Positions 230-48,925 of a DNA stretch of 64,000 nt are shown here, piece after piece; within the stretch, counting starts at the first letter, position 1; each line of letters begins with the position of its first letter. Position numbers and translations under genes: made by a program. The notes beneath the pieces are model-generated. The model had not been told where the DNA came from. It ran no database searches and worked only from the letters and a program-made list of their open reading frames with translations. This stretch comes from a virus (lineage: Duplodnaviria > Caudoviricetes): IMG/VR virus record IMGVR_UViG_3300048606_000186, positions 1 through 64,000 of that record. One strand, 5' to 3'.

Positions 230-619
230 GTGCCAACGGGGACCGGGCCGATGACGCCACCGCTGATGCAGACGCTGGCGCCGCTGACCGAAGTCGCGGT
301 GCCAGACGTCGAACTGTGGCCGTGCCGCACGGTCGTCGGCAAGGCGGGCATATCGAAGACTGAAATCTATCGCCGCATGAAGGATCGGGATCCGGCACTC
401 AACCCGTTTCCCCAGTCATTCCATCGACCCGGCCGCAAGCAAGGGGTTTTCTGGGCCTCGGTCGACGTCCTTGCTTGGCAGGTTGCCGAGATGGGCTTGA
501 CCCCCTCGCCCCATCCGACTTGGCCGAGCGCCTGGCTAGGGCTGACGTCGATCACCATTCCGGCGCACCAGATGCCCGTGGAGGCCGTGCGGGCGAGCCT
601 CGCGAGCTTTCTCGGATGA
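230..619 (+). CDS. alpA: AlpA-family (excisionase-like) HTH regulator
   Basis: 'RTVVGKAGISKTEIYRRMK...FPQS...VFWASVDVLAW' matches the AlpA HTH pattern; stop overlaps the next ATG. Confidence 0.7.
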   Translation: MPTGTGPMTPPLMQTLAPLTEVAVPDVELWPCRTVVGKAGISKTEIYRRMKDRDPALNPFPQSFHRPGRKQGVFWASVDVLAWQVAEMGLTPSPHPTWPSAWLGLTSITIPAHQMPVEAVRASLASFLG

Positions 620-2832
620 GCGAATCATGTTTTACTGGATTGACGTTCGGTTCCGTCTGTTCCGGCATCGAGGCCGCGAGCGTCGCGTGGGAGCCGTTCG
701 GCTGGCGACCGGTCTGGTTTTCGGAGATCGAGCCGTTCCCGACGGCGCTGCTCGCCTGGCGATTCCCCGACGTTCCGAACCTCGGCGACATGACCTTGCT
801 TGCCGCGCGGGTGCGCGCCGGCGAGATCGAGGCGCCGGACGTGCTCGTCGGCGGCACGCCCTGCCAGGATTTCTCGGTCGCCGGGCTGCGGGTGGGAATC
901 GTGGGTGCCCGCGGCAATCTTACCCTTTCCTTTGTGGAGTTGGCCGATGCAATCGATGACCGTCGCGGACTTCTTGGGCTGCCCCCCTGCATCGCCGTTT
1001 GGGAGAATGTTCCCGGTGTCCGGTCGCTCGACTGCAATGCGTTCGGCTGCCTGCTCGCCGGGCTCGCCGGGGATGACGAGCCTCTTGTCCCAGGCCCGCG
1101 ACCCGAGCGGGGAAAGTCCAACGACTGGTGGACGTGGCGCGCGAAACTGGGCGACCATGTGGCGAAGTGGTCGGTCGCGGGTGCTGTCGCTGGCCCCGAA
1201 AGAGCAGTCGCGTGGCGGAGCTTCGACGCCCAATTTTTCGGTCTGGCCCAACGACGCGAGCGTGTGTTCGTTGTCGCAGGTGCTGGTGAGGGGTTCGATC
1301 CCGCCGCAATACTTCTTGAGTGGGAAGGCCTGCGCCGGGATTCTGCGCCGAGCCGAGAAGCGCGGGAAGAAGCTTCCCACCCCTTTGCTCCTTGCCTTAC
1401 AGGCAGCGGTCGCGGCGTCGAACGAACCGGCGACCCTCGAGGACAGGACCCCGACGACGGGGTCCTGTCTACAGGCGGGGCGGCAGTCGACGAAGCTGGG
1501 GACGCAGTTTCCAGGCCTGGCGACCTTTCTCGCGTAGCGGACACTCTTGAAGCCACGGCTGCGCCCAGCCGTGGCGCAGGGACTCCGCTCAGCATGCTCG
1601 TCGTCGAAGATCGGATAGCCCCGACGCTCGACGCCAGTTTCGCGCGCCTTCAGGGCTGCTCCGGTCAGGACTTGCGCCACGGCCACGGCCACGGCCACGG
1701 GCATCCGGTCACGGCGCCGCGCGGCGACCCGGATGAGGCCGTCCCACAATGGTGGGACGGCCGAGACGTCTCCCAGACATTGGATGCCGTGTTGCACAAG
1801 GGCCAGACCATGCCCGAGAAGGACCGCTTCCCCGCGGTGCTGCAACCGGTAGCCGCGAACGCGGCTACCGGACACTTCGCCGGATTCTGCGAAGTCGACG
1901 TATCGGATCCGCTGAGAGGTACGGGGGGTGATGCCGGTGACGGCAGCGAGTCGCTGATTGGTGAGGCGATCTGCGTCACCGGTTCGGTGACGCATACGCT
2001 CAAGGCCAACGGTTTCGACGGCAGCGAGGACGGGACCGGGCGCGGGCAGCCGATCGTGGCCTTCAATCCACGATCTACCGGCGTCAACGTCTACGTCGAG
2101 CTCGCCGGCACGATCGACGGCAGCGAGCCAGCACAGGCTGTGCTGGCTTTCAACGGTAAGGGTTACGCTCAGGACCATATCGAGAACCTGTCACCAACTC
2201 TGCGCGGGGGCAACACCGAGGGTCACGCTAACGCGGGTGTCCCGCCTGCGATTGCCTATGCGATTCAGGAGCGCGCCGTTTGCGAGAATCCGGATGCGGG
2301 CCCTGACGCCGACGGCGTCAGGGCCGACGATTGCGCCTACACGATGGAGGCGCGCAGCGTGCCGCAGAGTGTCGCCTTCGTCCAGAACAGCCGGAGCGAG
2401 GTGCGCCTGATCGGCGGTGACGGGCAGATCACCGGCGCGCTTGCTGCTGAGCTCCCGGCTCAGCAGCAGAATTATGTCGCCTCGGGTGCCCAGACCATGG
2501 CCGTCCGCCGCCTGATGCCCGTGGAATGTGAGCGTTTGCAAGGCTTCCCGGACGGCTGGACCCTGATCCCGTGGAAGGCGCTGAGCCGCTTCATGAAGCG
2601 CGAGGCCAGGGCCGGCACGCTGACCGACGCCGGCCTGCGCGCCTATGCCGCGACCTTGCCGCCGCCGACCGACCCCGCCGAGTGCCCGGACGGGCCGCGC
2701 TATAAGGCGATCGGCAATTCGATGGCGGTGCGCTGCATGGCGTGGATCGGCGGCAGGATCGAGCGTCATCGCCATCTGCCGAACGCCCTCGCATCCGTCG
2801 CCGCGCCAAGCATTGAGGGCTTCCTCGGATGA
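616..2832 (+). CDS. DNA cytosine-C5 methyltransferase with very long variable region
   Basis: Motif I SVCSGIE, catalytic GGTPCQDFS, motif VI WENVPG, QRRERVF, motif IX RRLMPVECERLQGFPD, motif X GNSMAV; start at 616 (ATGA overlap) is preferred over 475. Confidence 0.95.
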   Translation: MSESCFTGLTFGSVCSGIEAASVAWEPFGWRPVWFSEIEPFPTALLAWRFPDVPNLGDMTLLAARVRAGEIEAPDVLVGGTPCQDFSVAGLRVGIVGARGNLTLSFVELADAIDDRRGLLGLPPCIAVWENVPGVRSLDCNAFGCLLAGLAGDDEPLVPGPRPERGKSNDWWTWRAKLGDHVAKWSVAGAVAGPERAVAWRSFDAQFFGLAQRRERVFVVAGAGEGFDPAAILLEWEGLRRDSAPSREAREEASHPFAPCLTGSGRGVERTGDPRGQDPDDGVLSTGGAAVDEAGDAVSRPGDLSRVADTLEATAAPSRGAGTPLSMLVVEDRIAPTLDASFARLQGCSGQDLRHGHGHGHGHPVTAPRGDPDEAVPQWWDGRDVSQTLDAVLHKGQTMPEKDRFPAVLQPVAANAATGHFAGFCEVDVSDPLRGTGGDAGDGSESLIGEAICVTGSVTHTLKANGFDGSEDGTGRGQPIVAFNPRSTGVNVYVELAGTIDGSEPAQAVLAFNGKGYAQDHIENLSPTLRGGNTEGHANAGVPPAIAYAIQERAVCENPDAGPDADGVRADDCAYTMEARSVPQSVAFVQNSRSEVRLIGGDGQITGALAAELPAQQQNYVASGAQTMAVRRLMPVECERLQGFPDGWTLIPWKALSRFMKREARAGTLTDAGLRAYAATLPPPTDPAECPDGPRYKAIGNSMAVRCMAWIGGRIERHRHLPNALASVAAPSIEGFLG

Positions 2833-3620
2833 CGGTCTCGCTCGCCGATCTGCTCGGGCCCGGCATCGCCGCCGCCGACGCGCCGCCCGCAAGGCCGAAG
2901 CGCGCGCCCCGCGCCAAAGCAACGCCTGCGCCGGCCGCGCCCCCCGAGGAATGGAGCCTGGTCGCGCTCGAAGACCTGCCGGAGACCGCGGCGGGCGTCC
3001 GCGCGCACGCGATCAAGATGGCAGGATCGGGCCGCGCCTGGATCGAGGCCGGCGTGCTGCGGCTTCCGGTCAGCAAGAATTTCCTCGCCCAGATTTTCCA
3101 GATGGACCCGGCGACGGTGACCAAGCGGCTGCTGACCTGTCCGACCGCGGGCATGGCGGGCGGCGGGCGGCCGGTCTACGATTTCCGGACCGCGATCGGC
3201 TATTTCGTGCCGCCGAGGATGAGCATCGACGATTATATTGCGTCGATCGACCCGAGCGAGCTGCCGCCGCACCTCAACCGCTTCATCATCGGCGCCAAGC
3301 GCGAGGCGCTGCGCTATGCGCTCGAGGCGGGCGACGCCTGGCTGACCGCCGACATCATCGACACGCTCGGCGACCTGTGGATGACGATCAAGAACCAGAT
3401 GCCGCTCCTGGTCGAATCGATGCGCGAACTCGGGCTCGACGATATCCAGGCTGACGCGCTGCGCGCCAAGCTCGATGCGTTCCAGGCGCGGCTGCACGCC
3501 GGACTGGTCGAGATGCCGAAGAAGAAGAAGACGCTGTCGATGCTCGGCCAGGCGCCGGTCGCCGCGCCGATCGATGCGGTGGGCGGCGAAGGGGACGACG
3601 GGCCCGCGGTGACGGCGTGA
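2829..3620 (+). CDS. terS: Terminase small subunit (chi/Nazgul-type, DUF1441-like)
   Basis: HTH 'LAQIFQMDPATVTKRL...VYDFRTA' plus helical C-terminus; lies upstream of terL in a chi-like gene order. Confidence 0.7.
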   Translation: MTVSLADLLGPGIAAADAPPARPKRAPRAKATPAPAAPPEEWSLVALEDLPETAAGVRAHAIKMAGSGRAWIEAGVLRLPVSKNFLAQIFQMDPATVTKRLLTCPTAGMAGGGRPVYDFRTAIGYFVPPRMSIDDYIASIDPSELPPHLNRFIIGAKREALRYALEAGDAWLTADIIDTLGDLWMTIKNQMPLLVESMRELGLDDIQADALRAKLDAFQARLHAGLVEMPKKKKTLSMLGQAPVAAPIDAVGGEGDDGPAVTA

Positions 3621-4942
3621 CGGGCCGCATTCTGACCGGCGACGCGCTGGAGATGCTGCGGCGGTTGGCCGACGCCAGCGTCCATTGCGTGGTGACGTCG
3701 CCGCCCTATTTCGGGCTTCGGGATTATCAAACAGGGACGTGGGATGGCGGCGACCCGGAGTGTGATCACGCGCCGGCGCAGGATTGGGTCGCCGACGGCG
3801 GTGACATGCGGCGATCGCACCCTGCGATCGCCGGCAACCAGGCGAAAGCCGAGCGCAGACGCGGCGCGAGGTGTGCGTGCGGCGCGGTCAAGGTCGACCA
3901 GCAGGTCGGGCTGGAATCGTCGCCCGACGCCTATATCGTGCGCCTAGTCGAACTGTGCCGAGAGGTCCGCCGCGTGCTGCGCGACGACGGGACCTTCTGG
4001 CTGAACCTCGGCGACACCTATTGCAACGACCAGAAGGGTCCGAAAGGCGCCGACAAATCGACGCTGACGGGGGGCGGCGACTATCAGATGATCGCCGCCC
4101 CCCGCTCGCTCGGGCAGATGCGCTACCGGGAATGGGGCAACAAGCGCAAAGACCTGCTGATGATCCCCGCCCAGGTCGCCTTGGCGCTGCGCGACGACGG
4201 CTGGTATCTGCGTCAGGACATCATCTGGGCCAAGGACAATCCGATGCCCGAGAGCGTGCGCGACCGCTGCACGCGAAGCCACGAGCACCTGTTCCTGCTG
4301 ACCAAGCGCGAGCGCTATTATTTCGACGCAGAGGCGATCAAGGAGCCAGCCGTCACCGAGTCGCGCGGCAAACGAAATTCGTTTGCCCGCAAGAGCGCGA
4401 TCGGGCTCGACGAGGTCCATTACGGCAAGGGGACGATGCGCAACAAGCGCGACGTCTGGCGCGTCAACACGCGGCCGTTCGCCGAGGCCCATTTCGCCAC
4501 CTTCCCGCCGGCGCTGATCGTCGATTGCATCCGCGCCGGGACATCGGCCGCAGGCGTCTGCGCGGATTGCGGCGCGCCGTGGCAGCGGGTCATAACGCGG
4601 ACGTCGATGGTGATCGACCGCTCGGAACGGACGCACGATCTCGGCCGCACCCGGACGTCGGGTACGATGGTCGAGCCGCCGACGACGACGACGACGACGA
4701 CGACGGGATGGAAGCCGGGCTGCGGCTGCGCTGCCGGCATCGTCCCCGCCACGGTCCTGGACCCGTTCTTCGGCTCCGGCACGACCGGACTCGTCGCCGA
4801 GGTCGAGGGCCGCGACTGGATCGGGATCGATCTGAACGCCGACTATGTCGTGATCGCGCGGCGCCGCATTGCCAAGGCCCGGCTCGCGCGCTTCGCCGCT
4901 GCGGGCGTCGGGGCGCTGGCGTGGCTGGCCTGCGCCCAATGA
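3617..4942 (+). CDS. DNA amino-methyltransferase, beta class (SPPY, probably N4-cytosine)
   Basis: VVTSPPY catalytic motif at the N-terminus, HFATFPP, SAM-binding VLDPFFGSGTTG at the C-terminus. Confidence 0.92.
   Translation: MTGRILTGDALEMLRRLADASVHCVVTSPPYFGLRDYQTGTWDGGDPECDHAPAQDWVADGGDMRRSHPAIAGNQAKAERRRGARCACGAVKVDQQVGLESSPDAYIVRLVELCREVRRVLRDDGTFWLNLGDTYCNDQKGPKGADKSTLTGGGDYQMIAAPRSLGQMRYREWGNKRKDLLMIPAQVALALRDDGWYLRQDIIWAKDNPMPESVRDRCTRSHEHLFLLTKRERYYFDAEAIKEPAVTESRGKRNSFARKSAIGLDEVHYGKGTMRNKRDVWRVNTRPFAEAHFATFPPALIVDCIRAGTSAAGVCADCGAPWQRVITRTSMVIDRSERTHDLGRTRTSGTMVEPPTTTTTTTTGWKPGCGCAAGIVPATVLDPFFGSGTTGLVAEVEGRDWIGIDLNADYVVIARRRIAKARLARFAAAGVGALAWLACAQ
4682..4705 (+). repeat. (ACG)8 in-frame microsatellite encoding poly-Thr
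   Basis: Eight tandem ACG codons inside the MTase. Confidence 0.9.
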
Positions 4943-4973: not shown

Positions 4974-5354
4974 ATGAAGACGCTTTACCTTTGCGGACCG
5001 ATCAACGGCTGCACCGATGAAGAATGCACCGATTGGCGGAGCTACGTTACCAAGAGTTGGGACGGCCGTTGCATTGATCCGATGGTGCGCGATTATCGTG
5101 GCCGGGAGGCCGAGGCGTTCCGAGAGATTGTCGAGTTCGACAAGATCGATGTCACCGAAGCTGACATCATCCTCGTCAACTATGACAAACCGAGCGTCGG
5201 CACCAGCATGGAAGTGCTTTATGCTTGGGAGCGGGGCAAACGCGTAATCGTCGTCCTTCGCGAGGATGCGGTGATCTCGCCATGGCTTCGCTATCATGCG
5301 CACCATCTGGCCCACAGCTTCGATGAGGCGATGAGAATCGCAAGCGCCGCGTGA
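4974..5354 (+). CDS. Nucleoside 2-deoxyribosyltransferase / Rcl-like N-glycosidase
   Basis: 'LYLCGPI', 'D..DVTEADIILVNYDKPSVGTSMEVLYAWERGKRV' is the NDT fold signature with the catalytic Glu in GTxxE. Confidence 0.8.
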   Translation: MKTLYLCGPINGCTDEECTDWRSYVTKSWDGRCIDPMVRDYRGREAEAFREIVEFDKIDVTEADIILVNYDKPSVGTSMEVLYAWERGKRVIVVLREDAVISPWLRYHAHHLAHSFDEAMRIASAA

Positions 5355-5596
5355 AGATCGAACACCGCCTTCGCGCGCATGGGCGTTGTCCCGTGGACGG
5401 AGCGCTAGACGCTTATCAAGTGATCGTGCGCTGCCACCGGGTCATCAAGGTCGAGGATATCCTGGCGGCTGTCGAATCCTTCACCACTGAACCGGTGTTG
5501 CAGGAGCAGTTCACTCGTCAGCTTGCGGCCCGACTGCGCGCGGAGGTGGAAACTATCGGGTTTCACTCGGGCGTCGAGACGCGGGTTGTCGCATGA
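5351..5596 (+). CDS. Minimal T-fold, QueF-like protein
   Basis: CPVDGALD (C13, D20), VE35 and QE52 have spacing like the QueF active-site residues; only 81 aa. Confidence 0.55.
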   Translation: MKIEHRLRAHGRCPVDGALDAYQVIVRCHRVIKVEDILAAVESFTTEPVLQEQFTRQLAARLRAEVETIGFHSGVETRVVA

Positions 5597-6318
5597 TCCA
5601 TTATCACGGCGGACCCATCACTCCAGACCCGTGCGCAATTCGCGCATGGCAGGCTGGGCACGCGTTCATCTCGTATGCCGACAGTCGTCAAATTGGCTTG
5701 GCCGCAGAGATTTGCCAGTCGTTTGCGCTGGATAACGGTGCCTACACCTTCTGGAAGACCAAGCGACCGGTAAACTGGCCCGGATACTATGCGTTCGTCA
5801 ATGAGTGGAGACGGCATCCCGGATTCGATTTCGCAGTCGTCCCGGATGTCATCGAGGGAAGCGAAGAAGAAAACGATGCGCTTGCGGACGCATGGCCATT
5901 TTCCCGGCACGAAGCTGGCGTTGTGTGGCATATCAACGAAAGCTTCGAAAGGCTGAAGCGCCTCGCTTTGGCATGGCCGCTAGTCTGCATTGGCTCCTGT
6001 GGAGAATATGATGTCGCTGTTCCGGCCCGTTATTTGCCGCGCGCTAGGGCGGCAATTCGGACCATTTGTGATCGCCGCAGTCGGCCAATATGCAAGCTGC
6101 ATGGGCTGCGAGTTCTCAACCCTGCGATATTCACCCAGTTGCCGTTAGCCAGCGGCGACAGCACCAATATCGCTCAGAACATCGGCGTCGACTCGTCCTG
6201 GAAGGGCACCTATCAGCCGCGAAGCAAGGAAACGCGCGCCGCCATTCTTCGTGAACGCATTGAATCAATCAATAGCATTGGGCACCTCCCGTCACCAGTT
6301 GAAGCTTTTCTGGCATGA
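5593..6318 (+). CDS. dpdA: DpdA-like (TGT-fold) DNA 7-deazaguanine transglycosylase
   Basis: TGT-like motifs LDNGAY, VPDVI, VWH, LHGL, SGDSTN; adjacent QueF-like gene. Confidence 0.7.
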   Translation: MIHYHGGPITPDPCAIRAWQAGHAFISYADSRQIGLAAEICQSFALDNGAYTFWKTKRPVNWPGYYAFVNEWRRHPGFDFAVVPDVIEGSEEENDALADAWPFSRHEAGVVWHINESFERLKRLALAWPLVCIGSCGEYDVAVPARYLPRARAAIRTICDRRSRPICKLHGLRVLNPAIFTQLPLASGDSTNIAQNIGVDSSWKGTYQPRSKETRAAILRERIESINSIGHLPSPVEAFLA

Positions 6319-8531
6319 GAGTCTTCCACACCCTCGAGGACCTGATCCTCGCGTCAGCCGAGGCGGTGCGGCCGACCGAGCGGATCGACGTCGCCCAGGC
6401 GGCGGAGCGCTACCATATCGTGCGGCTTCCCGGCATGCATGACGGCCCGTTCAGCCTCGACAGGACGCCCTATCTGCGCGAGCCGATGGAGGAGATGACC
6501 TCGCTCCAGTTCGAGGGGATGGTGTTCATCGGGCCGGCGAGGACCGGCAAATCCGCCATGGGAATGAATTGGGTCTGCCATAGCGTCAAGGAAGACCCGA
6601 ACGACATGATGCTGGTCCACATGGCCCAGCACACCGCGCGCGAGTGGAGCCAGCAGGATCTGGAGCGGATGTTGCGCCACAGCCCGAAGATTCGCGAGCA
6701 GCTCGTCCCCGGCCGCCAGAACGACAACGTCTACGACAAGAAGTTCCTCTCCGGCATGCGGATCGAGGTGACCTGGCCGACGCCGTCGAACCTGTCGGGT
6801 AAGACCTACCGCTACACCTTCATCTTCGATTACGACCGTGAGCCGATCGTCATCGCCGGCGAGGGCGACAAGTGGGGGCTGACCTTCAAGCGCGGCGAGA
6901 CGTTCGGCCGCTACCGAATGCACGTCGCCGAGACCTCTCCCGGCCATCCGGTCAAGGACGCCAAATGGGTGCCGCCGCCCGGCGAGCCGCACGCCGCGCC
7001 GCCCTGCGATGGGCTGCTCAGCGTCTATAACGAATCGGACCGGCGCCGCTGGTACTGGCGCTGTCCGCAGTGCCATGAGGCGTTCGAGCCGCACCGCCGC
7101 CTGCTCAACTATCCCGATTCGAAGGACCCGATGGAGTGCGCCGAGGGCGTGACGATGATCTGCCCGCACGATGGCTTCCCGATGCTGCCCGACATGCAGC
7201 ACGAGCTCAACCTCGGCGGCCGCTGGGTCAAGGAGGGGCAGGTCTGGATCCCCGACGCGCGACTGGTCGGTCCCGAGACCGGCGAAATCCTCGGCGAGGC
7301 GCGCCGGTCGAACATCGCGGGCTTTTGGATGTTCGGCCCGGCGGCCGGCTTCACCGACTGGAAGAAGCTGGTCTACCGCCTGCGCGTCGCCGAGCAGGAT
7401 TATGAGCGCAACGGCGGTGAGGACAAGCTCAAGACCTGTCTCAACACCGATTTCGGCGAGCCGCACGTTCCCAAGAATCTCGCCGCCGGCCGCCTGCCCG
7501 AGGAGTTGAAGGCGCGCGCCAGGGAGTGGAGCGAGCGCGGCACGGTGCCGCCTGGTGTCGGCTTCCTGGTCACCACGATCGATGTTCAGGCGGGCGGGCG
7601 GCCGAGCTTCGTGTGGCACACTTACGGGATCGGCACGCAGGGCGTCACGCCGGAGCAGGCCGAAGCTGGCGATTTCTCCACCGCCGCCGACATCTGGCAC
7701 GTCGACATGGGCAAGATCCGCAAGTCCGAGCGCCTCGACGGGGATGGCGAGCGCAAGTTGATCGACCCGGCAGCTTATCCGGAGGACTGGGACCTGCTGA
7801 CCGATGCGGTGCTGCTCAAGACCTACCCCCTGTCGGATGGCAGCGGGCGGCGCATGGCGGTCAAGATCACGGCCTGCGACTCGGGCGGCGCCGCGGCGGG
7901 CGGCTACGGCAAGCGGGCCGCGGCCAAGGCCGGCGAGGCGAAGATCAGCGTCACCGCCAACGCCTACGAATATTGGCGGCGACTGAAGAAGGATCCGGAG
8001 GGGCGCCAGCTCCACCTGCGCTTTCACCTGGTCAAGGGTGAGAAGAGCGACTCGGCCCCGGAAATCCACAAGAGCTTCCCCGATTCGCAGCAGAAGGACA
8101 AGTTCGCGATCGCGCGCGGCGACGTGCCGATCTGGAAGATGAACTCGGACAAGCTGAAGGATCGCCTGTCGAACAAGCTCGGCCGCATCGACCCGGGCGG
8201 TCGGATCAATTTCCCGCTGTGGCGCGACGATGAAGGCGGCTGGGTCGATATCGGCTGGCTCTACCAGCAGCTGACCGCCGAAGTGCGGACCGCGCGCGGC
8301 TGGGAGAATCCCGGCAATAGGCGCAACGAGGCGTTCGATCTGCTCTATTATTGCCTCGGCGTCCTGCTGCACCCCGATATCCGGGTCGAGCGGATCGACT
8401 GGCGGGCGCCGCCGAGCTGGGCCGATCCCGACTGGGACCGCAACTCGCTGGTGTTCCTGCCCGGCGGCGCCCCGTCGCTGATCGCCCCGCCGAAACGCAA
8501 CATCGCAGATTTGGGCAAGGAACTGGGCTGA
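6315..8531 (+). CDS. terL: Terminase large subunit (lambda gpA type)
   Basis: Walker A GPARTGKS, 'RRWYWRCPQCHEAF' Zn motif, nuclease 'TIDVQ' and 'NEAFDLLYY'. Confidence 0.96.
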   Translation: MRVFHTLEDLILASAEAVRPTERIDVAQAAERYHIVRLPGMHDGPFSLDRTPYLREPMEEMTSLQFEGMVFIGPARTGKSAMGMNWVCHSVKEDPNDMMLVHMAQHTAREWSQQDLERMLRHSPKIREQLVPGRQNDNVYDKKFLSGMRIEVTWPTPSNLSGKTYRYTFIFDYDREPIVIAGEGDKWGLTFKRGETFGRYRMHVAETSPGHPVKDAKWVPPPGEPHAAPPCDGLLSVYNESDRRRWYWRCPQCHEAFEPHRRLLNYPDSKDPMECAEGVTMICPHDGFPMLPDMQHELNLGGRWVKEGQVWIPDARLVGPETGEILGEARRSNIAGFWMFGPAAGFTDWKKLVYRLRVAEQDYERNGGEDKLKTCLNTDFGEPHVPKNLAAGRLPEELKARAREWSERGTVPPGVGFLVTTIDVQAGGRPSFVWHTYGIGTQGVTPEQAEAGDFSTAADIWHVDMGKIRKSERLDGDGERKLIDPAAYPEDWDLLTDAVLLKTYPLSDGSGRRMAVKITACDSGGAAAGGYGKRAAAKAGEAKISVTANAYEYWRRLKKDPEGRQLHLRFHLVKGEKSDSAPEIHKSFPDSQQKDKFAIARGDVPIWKMNSDKLKDRLSNKLGRIDPGGRINFPLWRDDEGGWVDIGWLYQQLTAEVRTARGWENPGNRRNEAFDLLYYCLGVLLHPDIRVERIDWRAPPSWADPDWDRNSLVFLPGGAPSLIAPPKRNIADLGKELG

Positions 8532-38131: not shown

Positions 38132-38617
38132 TCAGGCCGCGACCCTTGGAGTCTGCTGTTCGCGATCTGTTCCGCTGTTCAATCCAACATTGCAAGTCTC
38201 GCCGAACGCGGCGGCCAAGCGGGTGACGCCGACCTCGGTCAGATAATAGCCGGCGCCGTGCTTGTTCCCGATCGCATCGCGGCCGATTCGCTTGCGTAGC
38301 TGGCAGATTCTCACGTTGACGATTTGCGGACTGCGATCTCTGGCGTGGTCCTGCCGCGGCATTGCGTTTTCGATTTCGCTAAGGCTGAATACGCGCCCGG
38401 GGCGTTGGTAGAGCATGACGGCAATGGTCGCGATGCTCGGCGGAACTTGAAGCGCCAGAGCCAGCGCCTTAACCCGGTCGATATCGGCACGCATTTCCGC
38501 CTCATCGCGCCAATAATCGCGCTCCTGGGTCATGTTACCGAGCCGGCTGCGCAGCAAGGTGATCTCCCTGACGAGCGCGGACCGATCGTCCGGCGTCAAG
38601 GCAAAGCCACCGCTCAT
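38132..38617 (-). CDS. OmpR/CtrA-type winged-helix protein without receiver domain
   Basis: 'LYQRPGRVFS...IVNVRICQLRKRIG..AIGNKHGAGYYL'. Confidence 0.75.
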   Translation of the reverse strand: MSGGFALTPDDRSALVREITLLRSRLGNMTQERDYWRDEAEMRADIDRVKALALALQVPPSIATIAVMLYQRPGRVFSLSEIENAMPRQDHARDRSPQIVNVRICQLRKRIGRDAIGNKHGAGYYLTEVGVTRLAAAFGETCNVGLNSGTDREQQTPRVAA

Positions 38618-40071
38618 CCGAGCAGCGCGGCTAGTGAGGCGGGTGCTGCCGCCGGCGGCGGGCCCAACAGCGCGCCGAGGTCCAGCGCCGGCGCGGCAAC
38701 TCCGAATCGCGCGCGAATATCGCCGGCGAACTCCGGCTCGGCTTCCATCAGGATGCAGTCGACGCCTTCCGCGCGCGCCGCGGCGCCGGTGGGCCCCGTG
38801 CCAGCGAACGGGTCCAGGACCGTGCCGCCTGGCGGCGTGACGAGGCGCACCAGCCAGGCGAGCATGTCGATCGGCTTGGCGGTCGGATGGCTGCGCAGTG
38901 ACACTTCGCCCGTCTCCGGGTCGATGCAGCCGCAGCCGGGTTTGGCGCCGACGCCGTGGTCGCCGCAGATCCTGCACTGGAATATCCGGTCGCGCGCCGT
39001 CGCCTTGGCGTTGTAGCGCACTGGCGCACCATCCAGTTCGGCGATCAGGCCGGCATCGAGCAGCGCGTCGAGCTCGTCCTCGCGCTGGAAGGCGTTGAAG
39101 AAGCGCGTCGAGCTCGTCCTCGCGCTGGAAGGCGTTGAAGAAGCGGGCCGCGCTGTCCGCTGCCGGGCGCGCGGGTGCATGACGTTGTCTGGCGAGCCGC
39201 GGCGCATTTCCCCGTAGCACGTTTGGTTTTTGCGCGAATTGGAGGAGGAGGAGGGCGCGATCTGGCCGGGCGCCGAGGGGAAGAGCGCCAGCACCTCGGG
39301 CGAGGCGTCGTGCAGGAAATTGGCCGGATGGCGGCCGAGTTGACTCGTCAATGTCACTTCATCGCCTGCGCGACCAAATGACGTCGCGATGGGGGCAGCG
39401 CGCAGTTTCGTGTCGCGCAAGTGAGGGTTGTCCGCGAGATTGCCGCCGTTGATCGTCTGATGCGCCACCCGGCACCCGTCGATGTTGATCGCGCCGGCGC
39501 CGTGCCGCAACAGGTTGAGCGCGCCATTCTTCTCGGCGAACGGCCGCTGGCCGACATAGATCGGCTCGAGCCCGGGCTTCATCGACTGGGTGCCGTATTT
39601 CCAGCCCTGCCAGAATTCGGCGACCTCGGCCCCCAGGCCGGCCTTCTCGATATATTTGGCGGCGTCATAGCCCTTCGGCATGCCCTGACCGTAGAGCCAG
39701 CCCAGGAACGGGTGCATCACGAAGCCGCCCATCTCCATCGCGCAGGCCATCCAGTGGCCGGTGCGCGGGGAGCCGAACGCGATGCAATAGCCGCCGGGCA
39801 ACAGGATGTCGTGGATCAGGCGCCAGAACTCAGGGTCGCGCTCGATGCCGGTCGCGTCCCATTTCGACCCCATGAAGCCGCCGCTCGCGCGCTGGAAGGC
39901 GCCATCGCTGCCGAACTTGGCCGGAGCGGCGCCCGCCTTGCCGAACCGCTTCGCCACGCTGACCAATCCGTAAGGCGCGTCCGTGACGACGCTGTTGACC
40001 CGGACACCCTGGTCGATCAGCCGGCGCAGGTGAGCCCGGTTGTCGCCTTCGTGGAGGATGATCGAGGTCAC
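38614..40071 (-). CDS. DNA amino-methyltransferase, beta class (DPPY-like, probably N6-adenine)
   Basis: VVTDAPY, 'MPKG', 'HPTAKP', VLDPFAGTG. Confidence 0.9.
   Translation of the reverse strand: MTSIILHEGDNRAHLRRLIDQGVRVNSVVTDAPYGLVSVAKRFGKAGAAPAKFGSDGAFQRASGGFMGSKWDATGIERDPEFWRLIHDILLPGGYCIAFGSPRTGHWMACAMEMGGFVMHPFLGWLYGQGMPKGYDAAKYIEKAGLGAEVAEFWQGWKYGTQSMKPGLEPIYVGQRPFAEKNGALNLLRHGAGAINIDGCRVAHQTINGGNLADNPHLRDTKLRAAPIATSFGRAGDEVTLTSQLGRHPANFLHDASPEVLALFPSAPGQIAPSSSSNSRKNQTCYGEMRRGSPDNVMHPRARQRTARPASSTPSSARTSSTRFFNAFQREDELDALLDAGLIAELDGAPVRYNAKATARDRIFQCRICGDHGVGAKPGCGCIDPETGEVSLRSHPTAKPIDMLAWLVRLVTPPGGTVLDPFAGTGPTGAAARAEGVDCILMEAEPEFAGDIRARFGVAAPALDLGALLGPPPAAAPASLAALLG
39062..39141. repeat. 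Perfect 40-bp tandem duplication inside the MTase
   Basis: AGCGCGTCGAGCTCGTCCTCGCGCTGGAAGGCGTTGAAGA x2. Confidence 0.95.
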
Positions 40072-41984: not shown

Positions 41985-42989
41985 TCAGCCGACCGCCGCG
42001 GCGCGCGCCCGGACGATCTCGACGAAGCCGTCGGTCAGCGCGGCCAGGTTTTCGAGGCTGCTGCTGTTCGGCAGCGTGTCCATCGGGACGTCGTCGAGCG
42101 CCCCTTCGCTGGCATGGCCACGGGGCGGCGCGTCGAAACCCGGCCGGATCTTGGCCGGCACGCCGCCGAGCTCGCAGACAAGGTCGAACTCGTTGGCAAA
42201 GCGCATGTCGTCGATCACGATGTCGCGGCCACCGCCGATGATTCGCCACGCGTCGATCTTAAGGCGCATGATCGCGATCCACAGGTCGGGCCTGACCAGT
42301 TCGCGGCCCCATTCGGTGCCGAGCGTCTGCTGGAGATAGCGCGACGTGAGACCGGTCCGGCCGAGCACCTGGTCGACGATCCATTTGTTGAGCGAGCAGA
42401 TGATGTAGCGCGGCGTCACGCCGAGCCCGTCGATCTCCTGGTTGGCCAGGTCGCCGTGGAGCATGCGATCGATCGTGCGCTCGTCGAATGCGAGGTCATT
42501 CAGCATCGCGCGGACCATGGCCTCGATCATGCGGGACACGACGCAAGGCGGCATGCGCATCGGGAGGCTGTCGGTCACGATTTCCTTGAGGTCGCCCTCC
42601 ACCATGCGCTCGATCATTTCGACCGGATAAGCGAGCGAGCGCAGCATCGCGCGGAGCATCTCCTTCAGCGTGCCGGCGAACTTCAGCGCCATGAAACCGT
42701 GGCGCTCGACCAGGCGACGGGCGACCTCGGATTTCCCCGAACCCATGGCCGGCGCACAGAGCGCGATCAGGATCGGGGGCGGAGGCGGAGGGGCGGGTTC
42801 CGCATAGGCGATGCGGCCGGCGGCAACGGGCCTGCGCTGATATAAGCCCCTGGCACCAGTCTCTCCGGATAGCTCGGTTCTCGCCAGACGATCGATCCGT
42901 GCGTCAATTTCATCGTCCGGCTGTGCGTAGTCCGTGGTTCGGGCTGCATCGCTGAAAACGACTGGGCAGATGGGCTCGTTCATGGCCAC
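41985..42989 (-). CDS. Deoxynucleoside monophosphate kinase (T4 gp1-like) with internal duplication
   Basis: P-loop GSGKS, 'KFAGTLKEM', 'QTLGTEWGR', 'IDDMRFANE', 'HASE'. Confidence 0.88.
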   Translation of the reverse strand: MAMNEPICPVVFSDAARTTDYAQPDDEIDARIDRLARTELSGETGARGLYQRRPVAAGRIAYAEPAPPPPPPILIALCAPAMGSGKSEVARRLVERHGFMALKFAGTLKEMLRAMLRSLAYPVEMIERMVEGDLKEIVTDSLPMRMPPCVVSRMIEAMVRAMLNDLAFDERTIDRMLHGDLANQEIDGLGVTPRYIICSLNKWIVDQVLGRTGLTSRYLQQTLGTEWGRELVRPDLWIAIMRLKIDAWRIIGGGRDIVIDDMRFANEFDLVCELGGVPAKIRPGFDAPPRGHASEGALDDVPMDTLPNSSSLENLAALTDGFVEIVRARAAAVG

Positions 42990-43332: not shown

Positions 43333-43905
43333 TCATATCGCCACCGCCTCGCCGGTCAGCTCGGTGAAGCGCGCGGCGAACATCCGGGTGGCCGACTCCG
43401 GCCCCCAGCAATGGATTTCGATGTCGGCGGGTTCGCCGGCGACGTTCCAATCGTGGGGGACCGGGTTCATCACCGCCTCGCGCTCGGTCAGCAGGATGGC
43501 GCGGTCGGCCGCCGTGACGCAGTCGGGCTGCATGATCGGCAGATTGAAGCGTGTCGCCACGGCCTGCCAGTTGAGGAATTCGATCTCGCGATAGCCGTGC
43601 AGTTTGTATTTGAACGGCCGCCGCACGTCACCGACATAGGCCTCGGCCGCGTCGTGCATCAGGCCAGCGAAGGCGTGTTCGGGCGGAACGATGTGGCTGA
43701 CGTGGACGCTATGCTCCGCGACCGAATAGAAACGCCGGCACATGCCGTTGTAGCGACAGATCTTGCCAAGCGCCTGGGCGATATCCTCAATGAACACGTC
43801 TTCGGGTCGCGGGTCGAATGGGAAATAGGGCCTTCCGGTCCAACTGTGGGTCCAGTTGCCGCGCGCCTCCTGGCCGGCGATGCGGTTGTCGTAGCCGCCG
43901 CTCAT
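43333..43905 (-). CDS. HD-domain deoxynucleotide phosphohydrolase
   Basis: 'IEDIAQALGKICRYNG...YSVAEHSV...LMHDAAEAYVGD'. Confidence 0.88.
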   Translation of the reverse strand: MSGGYDNRIAGQEARGNWTHSWTGRPYFPFDPRPEDVFIEDIAQALGKICRYNGMCRRFYSVAEHSVHVSHIVPPEHAFAGLMHDAAEAYVGDVRRPFKYKLHGYREIEFLNWQAVATRFNLPIMQPDCVTAADRAILLTEREAVMNPVPHDWNVAGEPADIEIHCWGPESATRMFAARFTELTGEAVAI

Positions 43906-45109: not shown

Positions 45110-45138
45110 TATCTCCCCTTCCCACTAAAACATGAAAC

Positions 45139-45516: not shown

Positions 45517-45593
45517 TGCCGACTCCCTCGTTCGAAATTGCGTTATCCAGTAAAACATGAAATAGAGTCAAGCGAAAACGTCAGGCCGGCGCA

Positions 45594-46628
45594 TCATGCG
45601 ATCAACAACCAGGCGAGGCACCGATTGCGGGCGATCTCGACCGAGAAATCAGTCGGAGGTCTAACGGTGATGTTTTCGTTCAAACCCCAGCGCGGCGGGA
45701 AGAATGGTGTCGGCATCGGTGCGGAGAGCGGGCGGTATGTCTGCTTGATTTTGCTGCGGCCGGCCCTGCCTACGATATCGGGGTGTGAAGCGCGTGAATA
45801 TTTGCTGATCTCGCAGAACAGACCTTGGCAGTCGTTGAGTTGCAGCGGTCTGCCGAAAAGGCCCGGAAAATCGAGACCGAGTCGGTCGAATTCCGCATCC
45901 TGCCGGGACCACATTTCACGAATTACATCCTCGGCCGTGGCACCGCCTGTGTCGCTGAAACACTTTGAAATTCCATCCAGGGCGCCCGGTCCGGCGACGA
46001 CAAACTCGGATTCCCCAAACGCAAGCAGGCTGGAATAATTGAGGTCTAGCGCATATTGGAAGGCGAGGAAGCTTCCGAGGCCGGCATAAACATGGAGCAT
46101 CTCATAAACCTGGCTGAGTGAGGTCGCTCCAGCGATTCGACAGGGCAGACCATCGGAAAGCATCCGGCTCAACAACAACAAGTGATTTTCATGTTTTCGC
46201 GCCGCACCGAACGGTGGCGATGACATGATATATGCCGCCGAATAGATGGTTTCCCGCCTGGCCATCGCGCCAGAAAGAATCAACGCGGCGCGCTCAAGAG
46301 TTGCCTGCGTTGCCACAATAGGGCCGAGATCGGCTTCGAGCAGTTGCCAGGTCTCGATCTTATTGAAAATCTTGAACAGGAGCGTTCGGAAGAACAATTC
46401 ATCAGGCGCTTGAGAACGACCCTCGCCATATTGAACTTCGCGGATCAAATACTGGCTGATCCTGTCGGCAGCCCTGTAGGTATTGCAAAACCGCCAGTGC
46501 TGAATGATTGGGTCGTCCGTCCATGGCCCAATAGGATCAACGAGATGGCGGTAATATGCGGCCAAGCGCTCCGCCGCGAACCGCCAATAGCTGTCATAGA
46601 CGGCCGTTGGTTCAAGGTTCGCCATCAA
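45594..46628 (-). CDS. aGPT-Pplase1 / 5-hmdU DNA kinase helical-domain family protein (base hypermodification)
   Basis: 'RFCNTYRAADRISQYLIR', 'YSAAYI', 'FLAFQYALDLNY', 'GPGALDGI', 'DCQGLFCEISKY'. Confidence 0.82.
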   Translation of the reverse strand: MMANLEPTAVYDSYWRFAAERLAAYYRHLVDPIGPWTDDPIIQHWRFCNTYRAADRISQYLIREVQYGEGRSQAPDELFFRTLLFKIFNKIETWQLLEADLGPIVATQATLERAALILSGAMARRETIYSAAYIMSSPPFGAARKHENHLLLLSRMLSDGLPCRIAGATSLSQVYEMLHVYAGLGSFLAFQYALDLNYSSLLAFGESEFVVAGPGALDGISKCFSDTGGATAEDVIREMWSRQDAEFDRLGLDFPGLFGRPLQLNDCQGLFCEISKYSRASHPDIVGRAGRSKIKQTYRPLSAPMPTPFFPPRWGLNENITVRPPTDFSVEIARNRCLAWLLIA

Positions 46629-47245
46629 TAGGATTCCAGCAACGGGATGCAGCGCAGAACCTTGTCCCCCGGTGTGGCGTTCGGATCGCGCAGAACAGCC
46701 AGGGATTGGTCGATCAGGGCCTGCTTGCGGCCGGAGCCGCGGGGGCTCGGCACCGGAGCCCCCGAATAGTAAGCGGCGATCGCCTCGCGCAGCCAGGCCT
46801 GGTGATCTTCATCGCCGTGCCGCAAGGATTGGAATAGCGCTTCCGCTTCATCACCGTTGTTTGCCGTTACCGGATCCCTGGACAGACCTGACGACTCTTT
46901 GAAGGCCTGCTTGTCACGGATCCGGCGCTTCAGGTCGGGCGTATCGATGCGACGAAACTCATCATATGCAGCTGTACTAAGATCGACTTCGAGCACACCG
47001 CACAGAGCGGCGAGCGTCACCATGACACCGCCCACCTCGTTAGGAACAGATCCGATCGGTCGGGCGAACACATAATCCACCACGCGACGAGCCTCGCACT
47101 TCGTCATGCCCACAGCCTGGGCCAATTCGATCGCTTCTTCGGTAAAGCGAAAGCCTCTCAGCACCGGTGTCGTTAGATCGCATGCGCCCTCGAAGACCTC
47201 GCGCATCCAGCGCATCACGTACCACTGGAAGACTTGAATTCTCAT
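46625..47245 (-). CDS. MazG-like NTP pyrophosphohydrolase with C-terminal extension
   Basis: 'RFTEEAIELAQA...YVFARP.G...EVGGVMVTLAAL'. Confidence 0.7.
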   Translation of the reverse strand: MRIQVFQWYVMRWMREVFEGACDLTTPVLRGFRFTEEAIELAQAVGMTKCEARRVVDYVFARPIGSVPNEVGGVMVTLAALCGVLEVDLSTAAYDEFRRIDTPDLKRRIRDKQAFKESSGLSRDPVTANNGDEAEALFQSLRHGDEDHQAWLREAIAAYYSGAPVPSPRGSGRKQALIDQSLAVLRDPNATPGDKVLRCIPLLESY

Positions 47246-47670
47246 ACGACGTGCTCGGCACGCTTAGGCTCTTCCACGGTTTCACATTGCAGGCGATCGA
47301 GCAGCGCAACTCTCCCCGTTCCCATGTCGACTTGGTAAAGCTGCGGATGCGGCGCCCGCCAGTCCCCATAGATATGCTCAAGCGCGCGTTCGACACGGAC
47401 CTCGAGACAGCGACTGGAGAACGGGCCAGCCTTGCCGGTGCCGATCCATTCGGCGAGATCTTCGCCCCAGGCGAGGTGCGGCGGCAACATCTTGTGGTCG
47501 ATCGTCTTCAGGGCCAGCGCGAGCTCGTCGCGCAGCACCTCGGCATCGTGCGGCTCGAACCAGGCGATGACTTGCCAGGTGTGGCCGTGAAGGTTGCCCT
47601 GCGGCCGGCCCGTCTCGCCCCTGGGATAGTGGGCGGCACAAAATACGCCGCTGACTCCGGTGCGCTTCAT
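47242..47670 (-). CDS. QueD/PTPS-like T-fold protein lacking the canonical Cys
   Basis: 'FCAAH...NLHGHTWQV...IDH'; GN replaces the CxxxHGH Cys region. Confidence 0.72.
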   Translation of the reverse strand: MKRTGVSGVFCAAHYPRGETGRPQGNLHGHTWQVIAWFEPHDAEVLRDELALALKTIDHKMLPPHLAWGEDLAEWIGTGKAGPFSSRCLEVRVERALEHIYGDWRAPHPQLYQVDMGTGRVALLDRLQCETVEEPKRAEHVV

Positions 47671-48101
47671 TTCCCCGGCCTCCACGCCGACAGCGACTGG
47701 TAATACCAGTGGTGAAGGAACCCGAGCGGCGCATGGCCGCCCATCATGCGCAGCCATAGCGCGCGGCCCGATCGTCCGTTGCCGTCGGTGAACGGGTGCA
47801 GGTCTTCATAGGCATGGTGAACCTCATATGGATCCGTGCCGTCGAGGATGTTGAACAGCCGGTCGCGGATTTCCGGACATCCGGGCGGTGGAACGTGATC
47901 GCCGACGTAAACATTCAGGCCGACTCGATCACGCAGCAAGGCGTCCGGTTGGACCACCGAGACGAAGCATTGCAACGACGCGATGCTGAGATCGGCGGTC
48001 AGGAACGTGGCATGCGCCTCGATTTCGGCAGCTGTCGCGGGCCGCATGATGCCTTCGATGCGGTTGCTCTCTTCCACGAAGAGGCGGAGGGTTGAGTTCA
48101 T
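47667..48101 (-). CDS. Stand-alone Fic-domain protein
   Basis: Intact HPFTDGNGRSGR motif; 'ESNRIEG'. Confidence 0.9.
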   Translation of the reverse strand: MNSTLRLFVEESNRIEGIMRPATAAEIEAHATFLTADLSIASLQCFVSVVQPDALLRDRVGLNVYVGDHVPPPGCPEIRDRLFNILDGTDPYEVHHAYEDLHPFTDGNGRSGRALWLRMMGGHAPLGFLHHWYYQSLSAWRPGK

Positions 48102-48925
48102 CCGATCATCTCCTGAAGCAATCGCGGCGCGCCCCAGCGACCGCCACCGAGCGACGTGAAGTGGCGTTGCAGCGTCTGGCGAATCTTCGGCCGCCAGTGC
48201 GGCGAGCAGCGCCGTTCCGGCACGATCGCCTCGTAAATGTCCTGAACCGGTGCCGCGCCGCCGAGCTCTCGCAGAGCGATCGACACCGCCTCGCGCCATG
48301 TTCCCGGGCGCGACAGTGCATCGCGCAGCTCGTCGCGCATCCCGTCGACGTCGCGCTTCTCGGCGAACAGCATAAGGCCGGCGACATAGCGGCGACCCGT
48401 CTTGGTGAACTTGGCCCAGGTCAGCGGCTTCGAAAGGCCTGGAAACAGGGTGCGCGGGATCAGATTCACGTCGATTGCGAACCGCTCCATGTAGCGGGCA
48501 ACGCGGCTCGGGGTCTGGAAGGTGTAGGCCGGCAGGATCATCGCGACCAGGCCGTCTTCCGGCAGCAGAACGTGGGCACGATCGAGCAGGGCATCAAGCA
48601 GCGCCATGTCGAACGGCGGGTTGCCGAGCAGCAGTTCTATCTTCCGCCCGGTCAAGTCCACGGTGAGGAAGTCGCCTTCGATAACGTCGCGGCCACTGGT
48701 TGCGCGCGCCACCGCGGCGGCCTTGGGATCGATATCGACGCCGAACGCGGGACAGGCGGCCGGGATAGCAGCGAGAAAGGCACCGGTGCCGCAGAAGGGT
48801 TCGGCGACATGCACCCTGCCGAGCCCGGCGAGCGCGTCCGCAACCAGTTCCTCGGCGGCCCAGAAGGGCGTGAACACCTGGTCGAGCGTAAGGTCGCCGG
48901 TACGGCTATGGGCGTCGATCGTCAC
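48098..48925 (-). CDS. DNA N6-adenine methyltransferase (gamma order) with C-terminal wHTH
   Basis: 'QVFTP', EPFCGTG, GNPPF; tail 'WREAVSIALRELGG....DIY...KIRQTLQ'. Confidence 0.88.
   Translation of the reverse strand: MTIDAHSRTGDLTLDQVFTPFWAAEELVADALAGLGRVHVAEPFCGTGAFLAAIPAACPAFGVDIDPKAAAVARATSGRDVIEGDFLTVDLTGRKIELLLGNPPFDMALLDALLDRAHVLLPEDGLVAMILPAYTFQTPSRVARYMERFAIDVNLIPRTLFPGLSKPLTWAKFTKTGRRYVAGLMLFAEKRDVDGMRDELRDALSRPGTWREAVSIALRELGGAAPVQDIYEAIVPERRCSPHWRPKIRQTLQRHFTSLGGGRWGAPRLLQEMIG

Follow-up and report, generated by a model that had tools for sequence, protein, structure and literature searches.

Phages mark their DNA chemically to evade restriction, and bacteria evolve enzymes that attack DNA marked in this way. 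One described set of systems consists of temperate phages with a DpdA-type DNA guanine transglycosylase (DpdA) of ~230-240 amino acids (aa), a TGT-like fold and no phage genes for preQ0 synthesis, namely the third, DpdA-only group of Hutinet et al. 2019, to which Salmonella phage 7-11 belongs (PMC6884629), together with BTP1-type prophage genes; a small QueD-like partner goes unmentioned in the published grouping. Other temperate phages carry orphan methyltransferases with no adjacent nuclease, as does Burkholderia phage phiE125 with its two methyltransferase genes. Finally, thymidine hypermodification clusters were reportedly described by Lee et al. in 2018 and 2021 for Pseudomonas phage M6, PaMx11, Salmonella ViI, Bacillus SP10 and Delftia phiW-14. 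Here, these systems are compared with a virus of the Caudoviricetes, IMG/VR record IMGVR_UViG_3300048606_000186 (78,843 bp, IMG/VR class provirus), whose first part, 64 kb in length, is the window analysed and carries four DNA methyltransferase genes, a DpdA gene and a stand-alone aGPT-Pplase1 gene.

The greater part of a siphovirus-like provirus lies in the window. We consider it probable that its modification genes consist of a backbone (a C5-cytosine methyltransferase, a QueD-like protein and DpdA) to which three orphan methyltransferases and nucleotide genes have been added, with modification of C, of A and possibly of some G. The observations bearing on this concern gene identity, motifs, folds, synteny and co-occurrence counts. 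In contrast to phages of the phiE125 type, four methyltransferase genes of three classes are present, two of them inside the packaging operon. The genes at issue and their predicted products are:

616..2832, plus strand: C5-cytosine DNA methyltransferase, 738 aa, ATG at 616 (PF00145, E 1.3e-26)
3617..4942, plus strand: beta-class amino-methyltransferase (SPPY), motif IV SPPY at residue 28 and motif I FFGSG at 384 (PF01555, E 6.4e-44)
5593..6318, plus strand: DpdA-type DNA guanine transglycosylase, 241 aa, 4-bp overlap with terL (phrog_887, E 7.8e-69)
38614..40071, minus strand: beta-class N6-adenine-type methyltransferase (DAPY), 485 aa, motif IV DAPY at residue 31 and motif I FAGTG at 422 (PF01555)
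45594..46628, minus strand: stand-alone aGPT-Pplase of clade 1 (Pfam HMUDK_hel), 344 aa (PF18723, E 1.2e-96, profile positions 1-280 of 281)
47242..47670, minus strand: small QueD/PTPS-like T-fold protein (PF01242, 24.4 bits, barely above cut-off)
48098..48925, minus strand: gamma-class M.TaqI-like N6-adenine DNA methyltransferase (NPPF), 275 aa, motif I FCGTG followed by NPPF, C-terminal helical domain

Four methyltransferase genes of three classes

The hallmarks of C5 methyltransferases are motif I (S-adenosylmethionine), the Pro-Cys nucleophile of motif IV, ENV in motif VI, QxRxR in motif VIII and, beyond a variable target-recognition region, motifs IX and X. The translation of 616-2832 contains FGSVCSG, PCQ, ENV, QRRER, RRLMPVECERLQGFPDGW and AIGNSMAV, and M.HhaI aligns with it in three separate blocks (residues 5-110, 204-220 and 629-653), a pattern that points to a C5 methyltransferase of the M.HhaI type (PF00145) with an unusually long variable region. 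This insert of ~380 aa between motifs VIII and IX (residues ~290-670), which includes an HGHGHGHGH run, is presumed to be the target-recognition region. C5 methyltransferases of 627-797 aa with the same split Pfam pattern were also seen in about ten DpdA-bearing viral records.

In beta-class methyltransferases the order is motif IV (D/S-P-P-Y/F), target-recognition region, motif I (FxGxG), and this order in the products of 3617-4942 and 38614-40071 (PF01555) places both in the class. The best PDB match of the SPPY enzyme was CcrM (1.2e-16), N4-cytosine methyltransferases and M.PvuII being matched as well, and a 130-nt stretch of its gene is 82% identical to phiE125 gp56. The DAPY enzyme has a ~240-aa middle insert, and both of its ends align with the H. 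pylori DpnA-type methyltransferase 5hfj. Its family comprises more than 2885 full-length homologues; the consensus of motif IV there is DPPY, and DAPY occurs in 4 of 28 aligned members.

Gamma-class enzymes show motif I, then NPP(Y/F) within ~60 residues, and a Rossmann fold like that of M.TaqI. In the NPPF enzyme, FCGTG lies at 84 and NPPF at 142 (numbering of the long open reading frame, ORF), and G-N-P-P is invariant in 42 homologues of the same length. Its predicted model (predicted local distance difference test score, pLDDT, 87.5) retrieved M.TaqI as the top Foldseek match (2.8e-10, 25% identity), then M.BseCI and CamA, with a type I M subunit also among the best, and PADLOC matched it to mad2 (E 1e-14) and to type II/orphan methyltransferases. 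Motifs and model thus agree with a gamma-class enzyme of the M.TaqI type; that DNA is its substrate is something we infer, because weak similarity to PrmC/HemK is also present. Judging from homologue lengths, translation probably starts at the GTG at 48925 and not at 49045. The ~1.3 kb upstream (48926-50200) holds several long overlapping ORFs with no frame of clear coding signal; ORF 48922-49710, considered as a possible protein-coding or nuclease gene ahead of the NPPF gene, was dropped, its 3' part having no coding-type third-position G+C signal.

No nuclease families were found in Pfam scans, which were non-exhaustive, of the ORFs flanking the methyltransferases, and of ten key proteins compared with NCBIfam none scored above a cut-off. 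The original prediction had placed four methyltransferases at 616, 3617, 38614 and 48098 and had seen no cognate restriction nuclease. All four are present at or next to these positions and look intact by family matches, motifs, PDB alignments and, for one, a structural model, and the scans of the flanking ORFs agree with the latter statement.

DpdA, its QueD-like partner and the packaging operon

By tblastn, the DpdA of the provirus is 60% identical to RefSeq prophage genes (P22-like, lambdoid) annotated as 'queuine tRNA-ribosyltransferase' and 31% identical to its Salmonella phage 7-11 counterpart (E 5e-17); a PDB sequence search with it gave no match. The residues D47 (LDNGA), D85 (PDV) and D189 (DSTN) are invariant in 24 homologues, their match to the catalytic aspartates of TGT being judged by eye. 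The predicted model (pLDDT 88.4) is a TIM barrel, and when it was compared with 48,161 chains by VIA-align the top four were Cap10 (Z 16.5), ArcTGT (16.2), TGT (14.7) and DpdA 7ui4 (14.5). A Foldseek-only ranking, which listed generic TIM barrels first, was set aside, since the exhaustive aligner put the TGT family on top. The model is consistent with a TGT-type fold, and by its sequence the protein appears to be a member of the recognised DpdA group, in the clade of temperate phages without preQ0 synthesis genes. Together with the phrog_887 match, the fold and the invariant aspartates bear out the DpdA cassette that had been proposed earlier. QueC was not found in six frames of the record, and FolE and QueE had no match on the ORFs scanned by Pfam; preQ0 or a close precursor must therefore be host-made. 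Modification of guanine would be conditional on this host preQ0, and the extent of replacement may be small.

Of the 80 closest viral DpdA loci, 20 have a homologue of the QueD-like gene next to DpdA, and in 14 of these it sits 9-20 bp upstream. In one example, among IMG/VR loci L126-L152, a ~100-aa QueD/PTPS-like gene (L128:5705-5992) lies beside a DpdA gene at 6001-6696. Searched against the PDB, a profile of the family matched QueD/PTPS structures (E 2e-4 to 0.11) and otherwise one weak unrelated chain (E 0.56). The position of the canonical QueD cysteine, assigned by eye, is Gln in this genome and Cys in some members of the family. This pairing of a QueD-like protein with DpdA is new here. 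The provirus departs from the arrangement of the DpdA-only phages in that its QueD-like gene, the usual neighbour, lies 41 kb from DpdA and an 81-aa gene occupies the pre-DpdA slot, and in that a methyltransferase gene, an Ndt-like gene and the 81-aa gene share with DpdA the interval from terS to terL. The remaining genes of this region are:

2829..3620, plus strand: small terminase subunit terS, 4-bp overlap with the C5 methyltransferase stop and with the SPPY methyltransferase start (phrog_141, E 4.6e-23)
4974..5354, plus strand: nucleoside 2-deoxyribosyltransferase-like (Ndt-like) protein, 126 aa (PF15891, 30.5 bits, and PF05014, 29.0 bits, both barely above cut-offs)
5351..5596, plus strand: 81-aa protein, in the slot immediately upstream of DpdA
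6315..8531, plus strand: large terminase subunit terL, gpA type (PF05876, E 7.6e-56; PF20454, E 1e-42)

The genes for the C5 methyltransferase, terS, SPPY methyltransferase, Ndt-like protein, 81-aa protein, DpdA and terL are joined by 4-bp overlaps, with the exception of a 31-bp gap before the Ndt-like gene. Since terL follows DpdA directly, the modification genes lie inside the packaging operon. The Ndt-like protein shows a GT..E motif by eye, and among 35 genome loci and 80 viral loci none had such a gene next to DpdA. For the 81-aa protein, Pfam, NCBIfam and PADLOC gave no match; in L140 one homologue likewise fills the pre-DpdA slot.

Relatives and the size of the modification load

The nearest whole-genome relative found was a 68.6-kb provirus, IMGVR_UViG_3300006169_000166 (G004; L286-L289), which is collinear with ours for 34 of 72 gene calls (30-74% identity). 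The two genomes have in common the C5 methyltransferase, terS, the QueD-like protein, DpdA, terL, structural genes, the deoxynucleoside monophosphate (dNMP) kinase, the primase-polymerase, the DNA polymerase and the helicase. The C5 gene of G004 lies in the same place (55% identical), and its QueD-like gene, unlike that of our provirus, is directly upstream of DpdA. In contrast, G004 lacks the SPPY, DAPY and NPPF methyltransferases, the Ndt-like and 81-aa genes, the HD phosphatase, the Fic protein, the MazG-like protein and aGPT-Pplase1. These genes therefore look like add-ons to a simpler backbone in our provirus.

For a broader comparison we used the 46 IMG/VR records with the closest DpdA relatives, 30 of which are at least 90% complete. 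PF18723 occurs in none of them, PF01555 in seven (at most one gene each) and PF00145 in 17. In the complete provirus G023 a beta methyltransferase, a C5 methyltransferase and DpdA are contiguous in coordinate order, which makes the island of DpdA and methyltransferases a recurring unit. The modification load of our provirus tops the range sampled: it exceeds that of all 46 records and that of G004 (one methyltransferase plus DpdA), in keeping with the earlier description of the genome as unusually layered.

The aGPT-Pplase1 operon and the nucleotide genes

The product of 45594-46628 is 24% identical to M6 gp55 (E 6e-15); the corresponding gene of the M6-like phage SN1 has been named aGPT-Pplase1 (PMC9476957), and the JGI name for close homologues is 'alpha-glutamyl/putrescinyl thymine pyrophosphorylase clade 1'. 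Residues C271-E272 are invariant in 26 sequences, including M6 gp55 and the homologue of Brevibacterium phage LuckyBarnes, and resemble the Cys-Glu pair that is essential in clade 2 transferases (PMC8989533). On this ground the protein is taken to be an active enzyme with no assigned substrate. Its translation contains no P-loop/Walker A motif, and a PDB sequence search gave no match. A role of this 344-aa protein as a kinase of 5-hydroxymethyldeoxyuridine (5-hmdU) was rejected, there being no P-loop and the whole protein being covered by the helical-domain profile.

The gene is the last of a translationally coupled operon of five, with ATGA-type overlaps, in the order methyltransferase, Fic, QueD-like, MazG-like and aGPT-Pplase1. 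The DpdA-associated QueD-like gene thus sits within the aGPT-Pplase1 operon, so that the two supposed 'modules' are not cleanly separate. The other members of the operon and the nearby nucleotide genes are:

41985..42989, minus strand: P-loop dNMP-kinase-like protein, 334 aa (phrog_139, E 6.9e-34; PF21448 weak, below cut-off)
43333..43905, minus strand: HD-domain deoxyribonucleoside 5'-monophosphate phosphatase-like protein (phrog_318, E 1.4e-59; PF12917 weak, below cut-off)
46625..47245, minus strand: putative MazG-like pyrophosphohydrolase, 206 aa (Atlas feature matches, all of them to MazG families, at 0.85, below the trusted range)
47667..48101, minus strand: small Fic-domain protein, 144 aa, intact, with the motif HPFTDGNGRSGR (PF02661, 25.7 bits; SoFic motif match in PADLOC)

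The dNMP kinase is 39% identical to that of G004. The first part of a longer ORF listed for the Fic protein, from 48299, shows no coding signal. MazG-type enzymes have EExxE ... ExxD metal-binding motifs and a four-helix bundle. In the MazG-like protein TEEAIE is present by eye, the second motif is EVGG and not ExxD (the last acidic residue is missing), and there is a local, weak resemblance to the core helix of the MazG in L214; Pfam, NCBIfam and PADLOC gave no matches, and its identity as MazG is only a lead. The idea that the 171-aa and 206-aa genes are halves of a frameshifted aGPT-Pplase was rejected in view of the ATGA overlap at their junction and of the separate QueD-like family to which the upstream gene belongs.

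Homologues of aGPT-Pplase1 number more than 6000, and the closest (60-66% identical) are stand-alone proteins of ~330 aa on large bacterial contigs (Sphingomonas, Sphingosinicella, Bradyrhizobium, Phenylobacterium). The gene context was sampled in 80 genome loci (L206-L285; cyanobacteria, acidobacteria, proteobacteria and others) by neighbour clustering and Pfam. Frequent neighbours were a ~330-aa unknown protein (54 loci), a pair of a helix-turn-helix (HTH) protein and an M78 peptidase (53) and MazG+MazG_C (50), followed by a thymidylate-synthase-like protein (14), Nmad2 (14) and a ThsB-type TIR protein (13). Members of this Pplase1 clade are mostly bacterial chromosomal genes that pair with MazG, and clusters of aGPT-Pplase, MazG and MazG-C, which are of the Nmad type of nucleotide-modification clusters, have been listed as predicted, unvalidated defence systems (PMC13092281). 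The operon, conserved across many phyla, also has a 95-aa gene and variable DUF1643 and ACPS genes (e.g. L214:2390-7989, L208:3297-7999). As in the bacterial operons, aGPT-Pplase1 of the provirus adjoins a MazG-like gene, and the pairing is thus kept here in reduced form, the gene upstream of Pplase1 being putatively MazG-like. Unlike in the bacterial operons, however, the MazG-like protein is short, with no MazG_C and no Pfam match, and the HTH/M78 pair and the ~330-aa partner are missing, the partners here being the methyltransferase, Fic and the QueD-like protein.

One locus on an alphaproteobacteria-like chromosome (L046:5941-12240; FlbT, FliI and FliJ nearby) contains an NPPF methyltransferase homologue, an RNase T-type exonuclease, Pplase1 and then DNA polymerase III alpha (dnaE); the methyltransferase is 65% and Pplase1 61% identical to those of the provirus. 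L046 is filed as Mycobacterium, which looks like a binning error. A general linkage of methyltransferase and Pplase1 was rejected, as it occurs in L046 only and in none of 80 other genome loci.

Partners of the thymidine pathway

With the clusters of M6, PaMx11, ViI, SP10 and phiW-14 the provirus has one family in common, aGPT-Pplase clade 1, and it differs from them in lacking a detectable deoxyuridine monophosphate hydroxymethylase, P-loop 5-hmdU kinase, clade 2 transferase and tailoring enzymes (pyridoxal phosphate, radical SAM or flavin adenine dinucleotide enzymes). In six frames of the 78.8-kb record, the thymidylate-synthase family PF00303, Tet/JBP PF12851 and ParB PF02195 gave nothing at E <= 1, and aGPT-Pplase3 (PF18746) was not found. 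When 26 M6 proteins were tested against the record gp55 alone matched, with no tblastn match for gp51, gp54 or gp58. The match to phrog_800, which appears to hold fused kinase-helical forms, runs through the helical part only (positions 356-471), and BLASTP showed no similarity between the dNMP-kinase-like protein and the 5-hmdU kinase M6 gp54. Judged by these searches, the clade 1 aGPT-Pplase (HMUDK_hel) of the pathway is present, and a source of 5-hmdU and a P-loop 5-hmdU kinase appear to be absent. In the reconstituted M6 pathway the kinase gp54 and the clade 2 transferase gp51 were sufficient, and the clade 1 protein gp55 was dispensable (PMC8989533). The closest homologue of Pplase1 in a cultured phage (38% identity), that of LuckyBarnes (L003:1843-5858), has as neighbours genes for two glycosyltransferases and for a thymidylate-synthase-like protein of 517 aa, and the annotation shows no kinase. 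This context hints that clade 1 proteins may serve more than one kind of pyrimidine modification.

The original prediction had described two hypermodification modules and three nucleotide-pool enzymes, and had proposed that C, A, G and possibly T are modified. The label aGPT-Pplase1 proved correct (PF18723, homology to M6 gp55, SN1 and JGI naming). Of the nucleotide-pool enzymes, the dNMP kinase (phrog_139) and the HD protein (phrog_318) stand, and the MazG-like protein, with no Pfam match, stays a lead. The thymine module has to be given up, consisting as it does of a single orphan gene without a detectable hydroxymethylase, Tet/JBP, kinase or aGPT-Pplase2. Modification of C and A is plausible and that of G conditional (no QueC); for thymine, with the pathway partners not found, it is unsupported.

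Genome layout and host

About 68 genes were called by third-position G+C; the window has a G+C content of 62-68% (in 4-kb windows), and no tRNA genes were found. The packaging and structural block runs rightward and comprises terS, gpA-type terL, gpW, a presumed portal gene (an ORF of 613 aa), the capsid gene and a presumed tape-measure gene (an ORF of 1429 aa). The early block runs leftward, and a rightward replication block encodes a primase-polymerase/VapE, DUF2800, an Enc34-type single-stranded DNA-binding protein, an exonuclease, a family A polymerase and a helicase. The gene names on the best protein matches suggest an alphaproteobacterial, perhaps sphingomonad, host. A nucleotide search of the first 20 kb against phage records found no cultured close relative; the matches were 73% to a Rhodobacter phage capsid gene and 130 nt to Burkholderia phage methyltransferase genes, and nothing else.

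Two proteins of the record are recorded on a 146,643-bp contig. Past the end of the window, the last 11.5 kb of the record (67348-78843; L002:4348-15843) is a single ORF of 3831 aa with nine RHS-repeat matches, a weak LysM match below cut-off and a C-terminal CdiA-CT RNase A-like toxin domain. As its end coincides exactly with the end of the record, this ORF is probably host flank or prophage cargo.

Discussion

Several points weigh against the layered reading favoured here, in which a C5 methyltransferase, QueD-like and DpdA backbone has gained orphan methyltransferases. SPPY is typical of N4-cytosine enzymes in motif surveys and the best PDB match of the SPPY enzyme, CcrM, is an N6-adenine enzyme, so that the motif does not settle between N4-cytosine and N6-adenine, both being possible for the product of 3617-4942. 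The DAPY enzyme deviates from the DPPY consensus in its first Pro, replaced by Ala, which we read as tolerated variation within the family. The fold margin of DpdA is small, the generic TIM barrel PdxJ reaching Z 14.4 as against 14.5 for DpdA 7ui4, and neither the Pfam TGT model (six frames) nor the PADLOC models matched it, from which it follows that this DpdA is not of the bacterial type. No tyrosine integrase (PF00589) was found in six frames of the whole record, and lysogeny therefore rests on the IMG/VR label 'provirus'. As to thymine, aGPT-Pplase2 was not found by tblastn with M6 gp51 or by Pfam scans of the larger early-region ORFs, its own profile not having been run in six frames, and 5-hmdU may come from a non-homologous source. 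Finally, all activities, target bases, timing, host preQ0 supply and the anti-restriction role are what we infer from the genes. For DpdA, the published record leaves room for doubt: in DpdA-only phages, 2'-deoxy-7-amido-7-deazaguanosine (dADG) made up 0.02% of G in Salmonella phage 7-11, no modification was found in Mycobacterium phage Orion (PMC6884629), and phiSM DpdA1 was inactive in E. coli (PMC10516641). Along with the missing preQ0 genes (QueC, FolE and QueE, within the scans given above), these cases would fit a virion DNA with methylated C and A and essentially no 7-deazaguanine, in which methylation alone matters and DpdA is idle or nearly so. We regard this as possible, if somewhat doubtful: the three candidate catalytic aspartates are invariant and the modelled fold appears intact, the DpdA gene is translationally coupled to terL, a conserved family of QueD-like partners exists, and the result for Orion is explained by a host without a preQ0 pathway.

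The opposite extreme is that all four bases are modified and that, next to DpdA and the methyltransferases, a functional pathway of thymidine hypermodification is made up of aGPT-Pplase1, dNMP kinase, HD phosphatase and MazG-like protein; this seems to us very improbable. In M6-like phages, pelagiphages and L009, genes for a thymidylate-synthase-like protein and an HD nucleotidase do accompany the Pplase1 family (PMC9599517), the HD phosphatase and dNMP kinase lie 2-4 kb from aGPT-Pplase1 here, and the enzyme is intact, with a Cys-Glu pair like the essential one of clade 2 (PMC8989533). However, the searches for the thymidylate-synthase, Tet/JBP, ParB and aGPT-Pplase3 families and for M6 gp51, gp54 and gp58 were all negative, the phrog_800 match is confined to the helical part, the dNMP kinase is unlike gp54, gp55 itself is not needed for glycinyl-thymidine formation in vitro (PMC8989533), and the closest Pplase1 relatives are bacterial chromosomal genes with a thymidylate-synthase neighbour in just 14 of 80 loci. 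These bacterial operons, with their HTH/M78 (53/80) and MazG+MazG_C (50/80) genes and, in a minority, Nmad2 or ThsB-type TIR, lend some weight to another view, namely that the leftward operon of NPPF methyltransferase, Fic, QueD-like, MazG-like and Pplase1 genes is prophage-borne cargo that protects the lysogen from other phages or manipulates the nucleotide metabolism of the host, anti-restriction being left to the packaging-operon enzymes only. The clusters in question are predicted defence systems (PMC13092281), PADLOC matches Fic to the SoFic motif and the NPPF methyltransferase to mad2, G004 has neither these two genes nor the MazG-like and Pplase1 genes, and two viral loci with a Pplase1 46-49% identical (L007 and L008) have none of the provirus' other genes, that of L007 lying near an integrase and an HSDR_N protein. 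Yet none of the cited defence systems is validated, Pplase1, the MazG-like and the QueD-like proteins have no PADLOC match, the operon lies among early and replication genes and not at a prophage end, the methyltransferase-Pplase1 pair of L046 adjoins dnaE and not a defence island, and the tie of the QueD-like family to DpdA points to self-modification; on balance we consider cargo unlikely.

If the layered reading holds, the C5 methyltransferase, the SPPY methyltransferase and DpdA, coupled to terS and terL, would act late, on replicated concatemers around packaging, the steps of the packaging operon being C methylation, a second amino-methylation and a G-to-7-deazaguanine exchange. The DAPY and NPPF enzymes, encoded in leftward operons, would add N6-methyladenine at other sites. 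DpdA would swap some guanines for host-derived preQ0 or a relative of it, perhaps with help from the QueD-like protein of the unlinked gene, and the dNMP kinase of the backbone and the HD phosphatase among the add-ons would reshape nucleotide pools. The aGPT-Pplase1 and MazG-like proteins would be a pair of unassigned chemistry, common in bacterial chromosomes and outside the thymidine pathway here. More speculatively, the five-gene operon at 45594-48925 may encode a base-modification route without 5-hydroxymethyl-dU or the known kinase/transferase pair, and the QueD-like gene might connect this route with the deazapurine pathway. We think such a route quite unlikely; if real, it would be a second, undescribed hypermodification in this phage.

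A temperate phage that stacks orphan modification enzymes is of a kind already known, and the leads offered by this genome are the pairing of a QueD-like protein with DpdA and the orphan Pplase1 operon. The claim of four modified bases should not be repeated without chemistry. An aGPT-Pplase1 without a recognisable hydroxymethylase or kinase provides a clean setting in which to study what clade 1 does by itself. Moreover, 'DpdA-only' phages may often have a small QueD-like partner, and this could bear on the differing modification levels among them. The provirus and G004 form a natural comparison, in which G004 can serve as a 'minus' control and which shows modification genes piling up as movable units.

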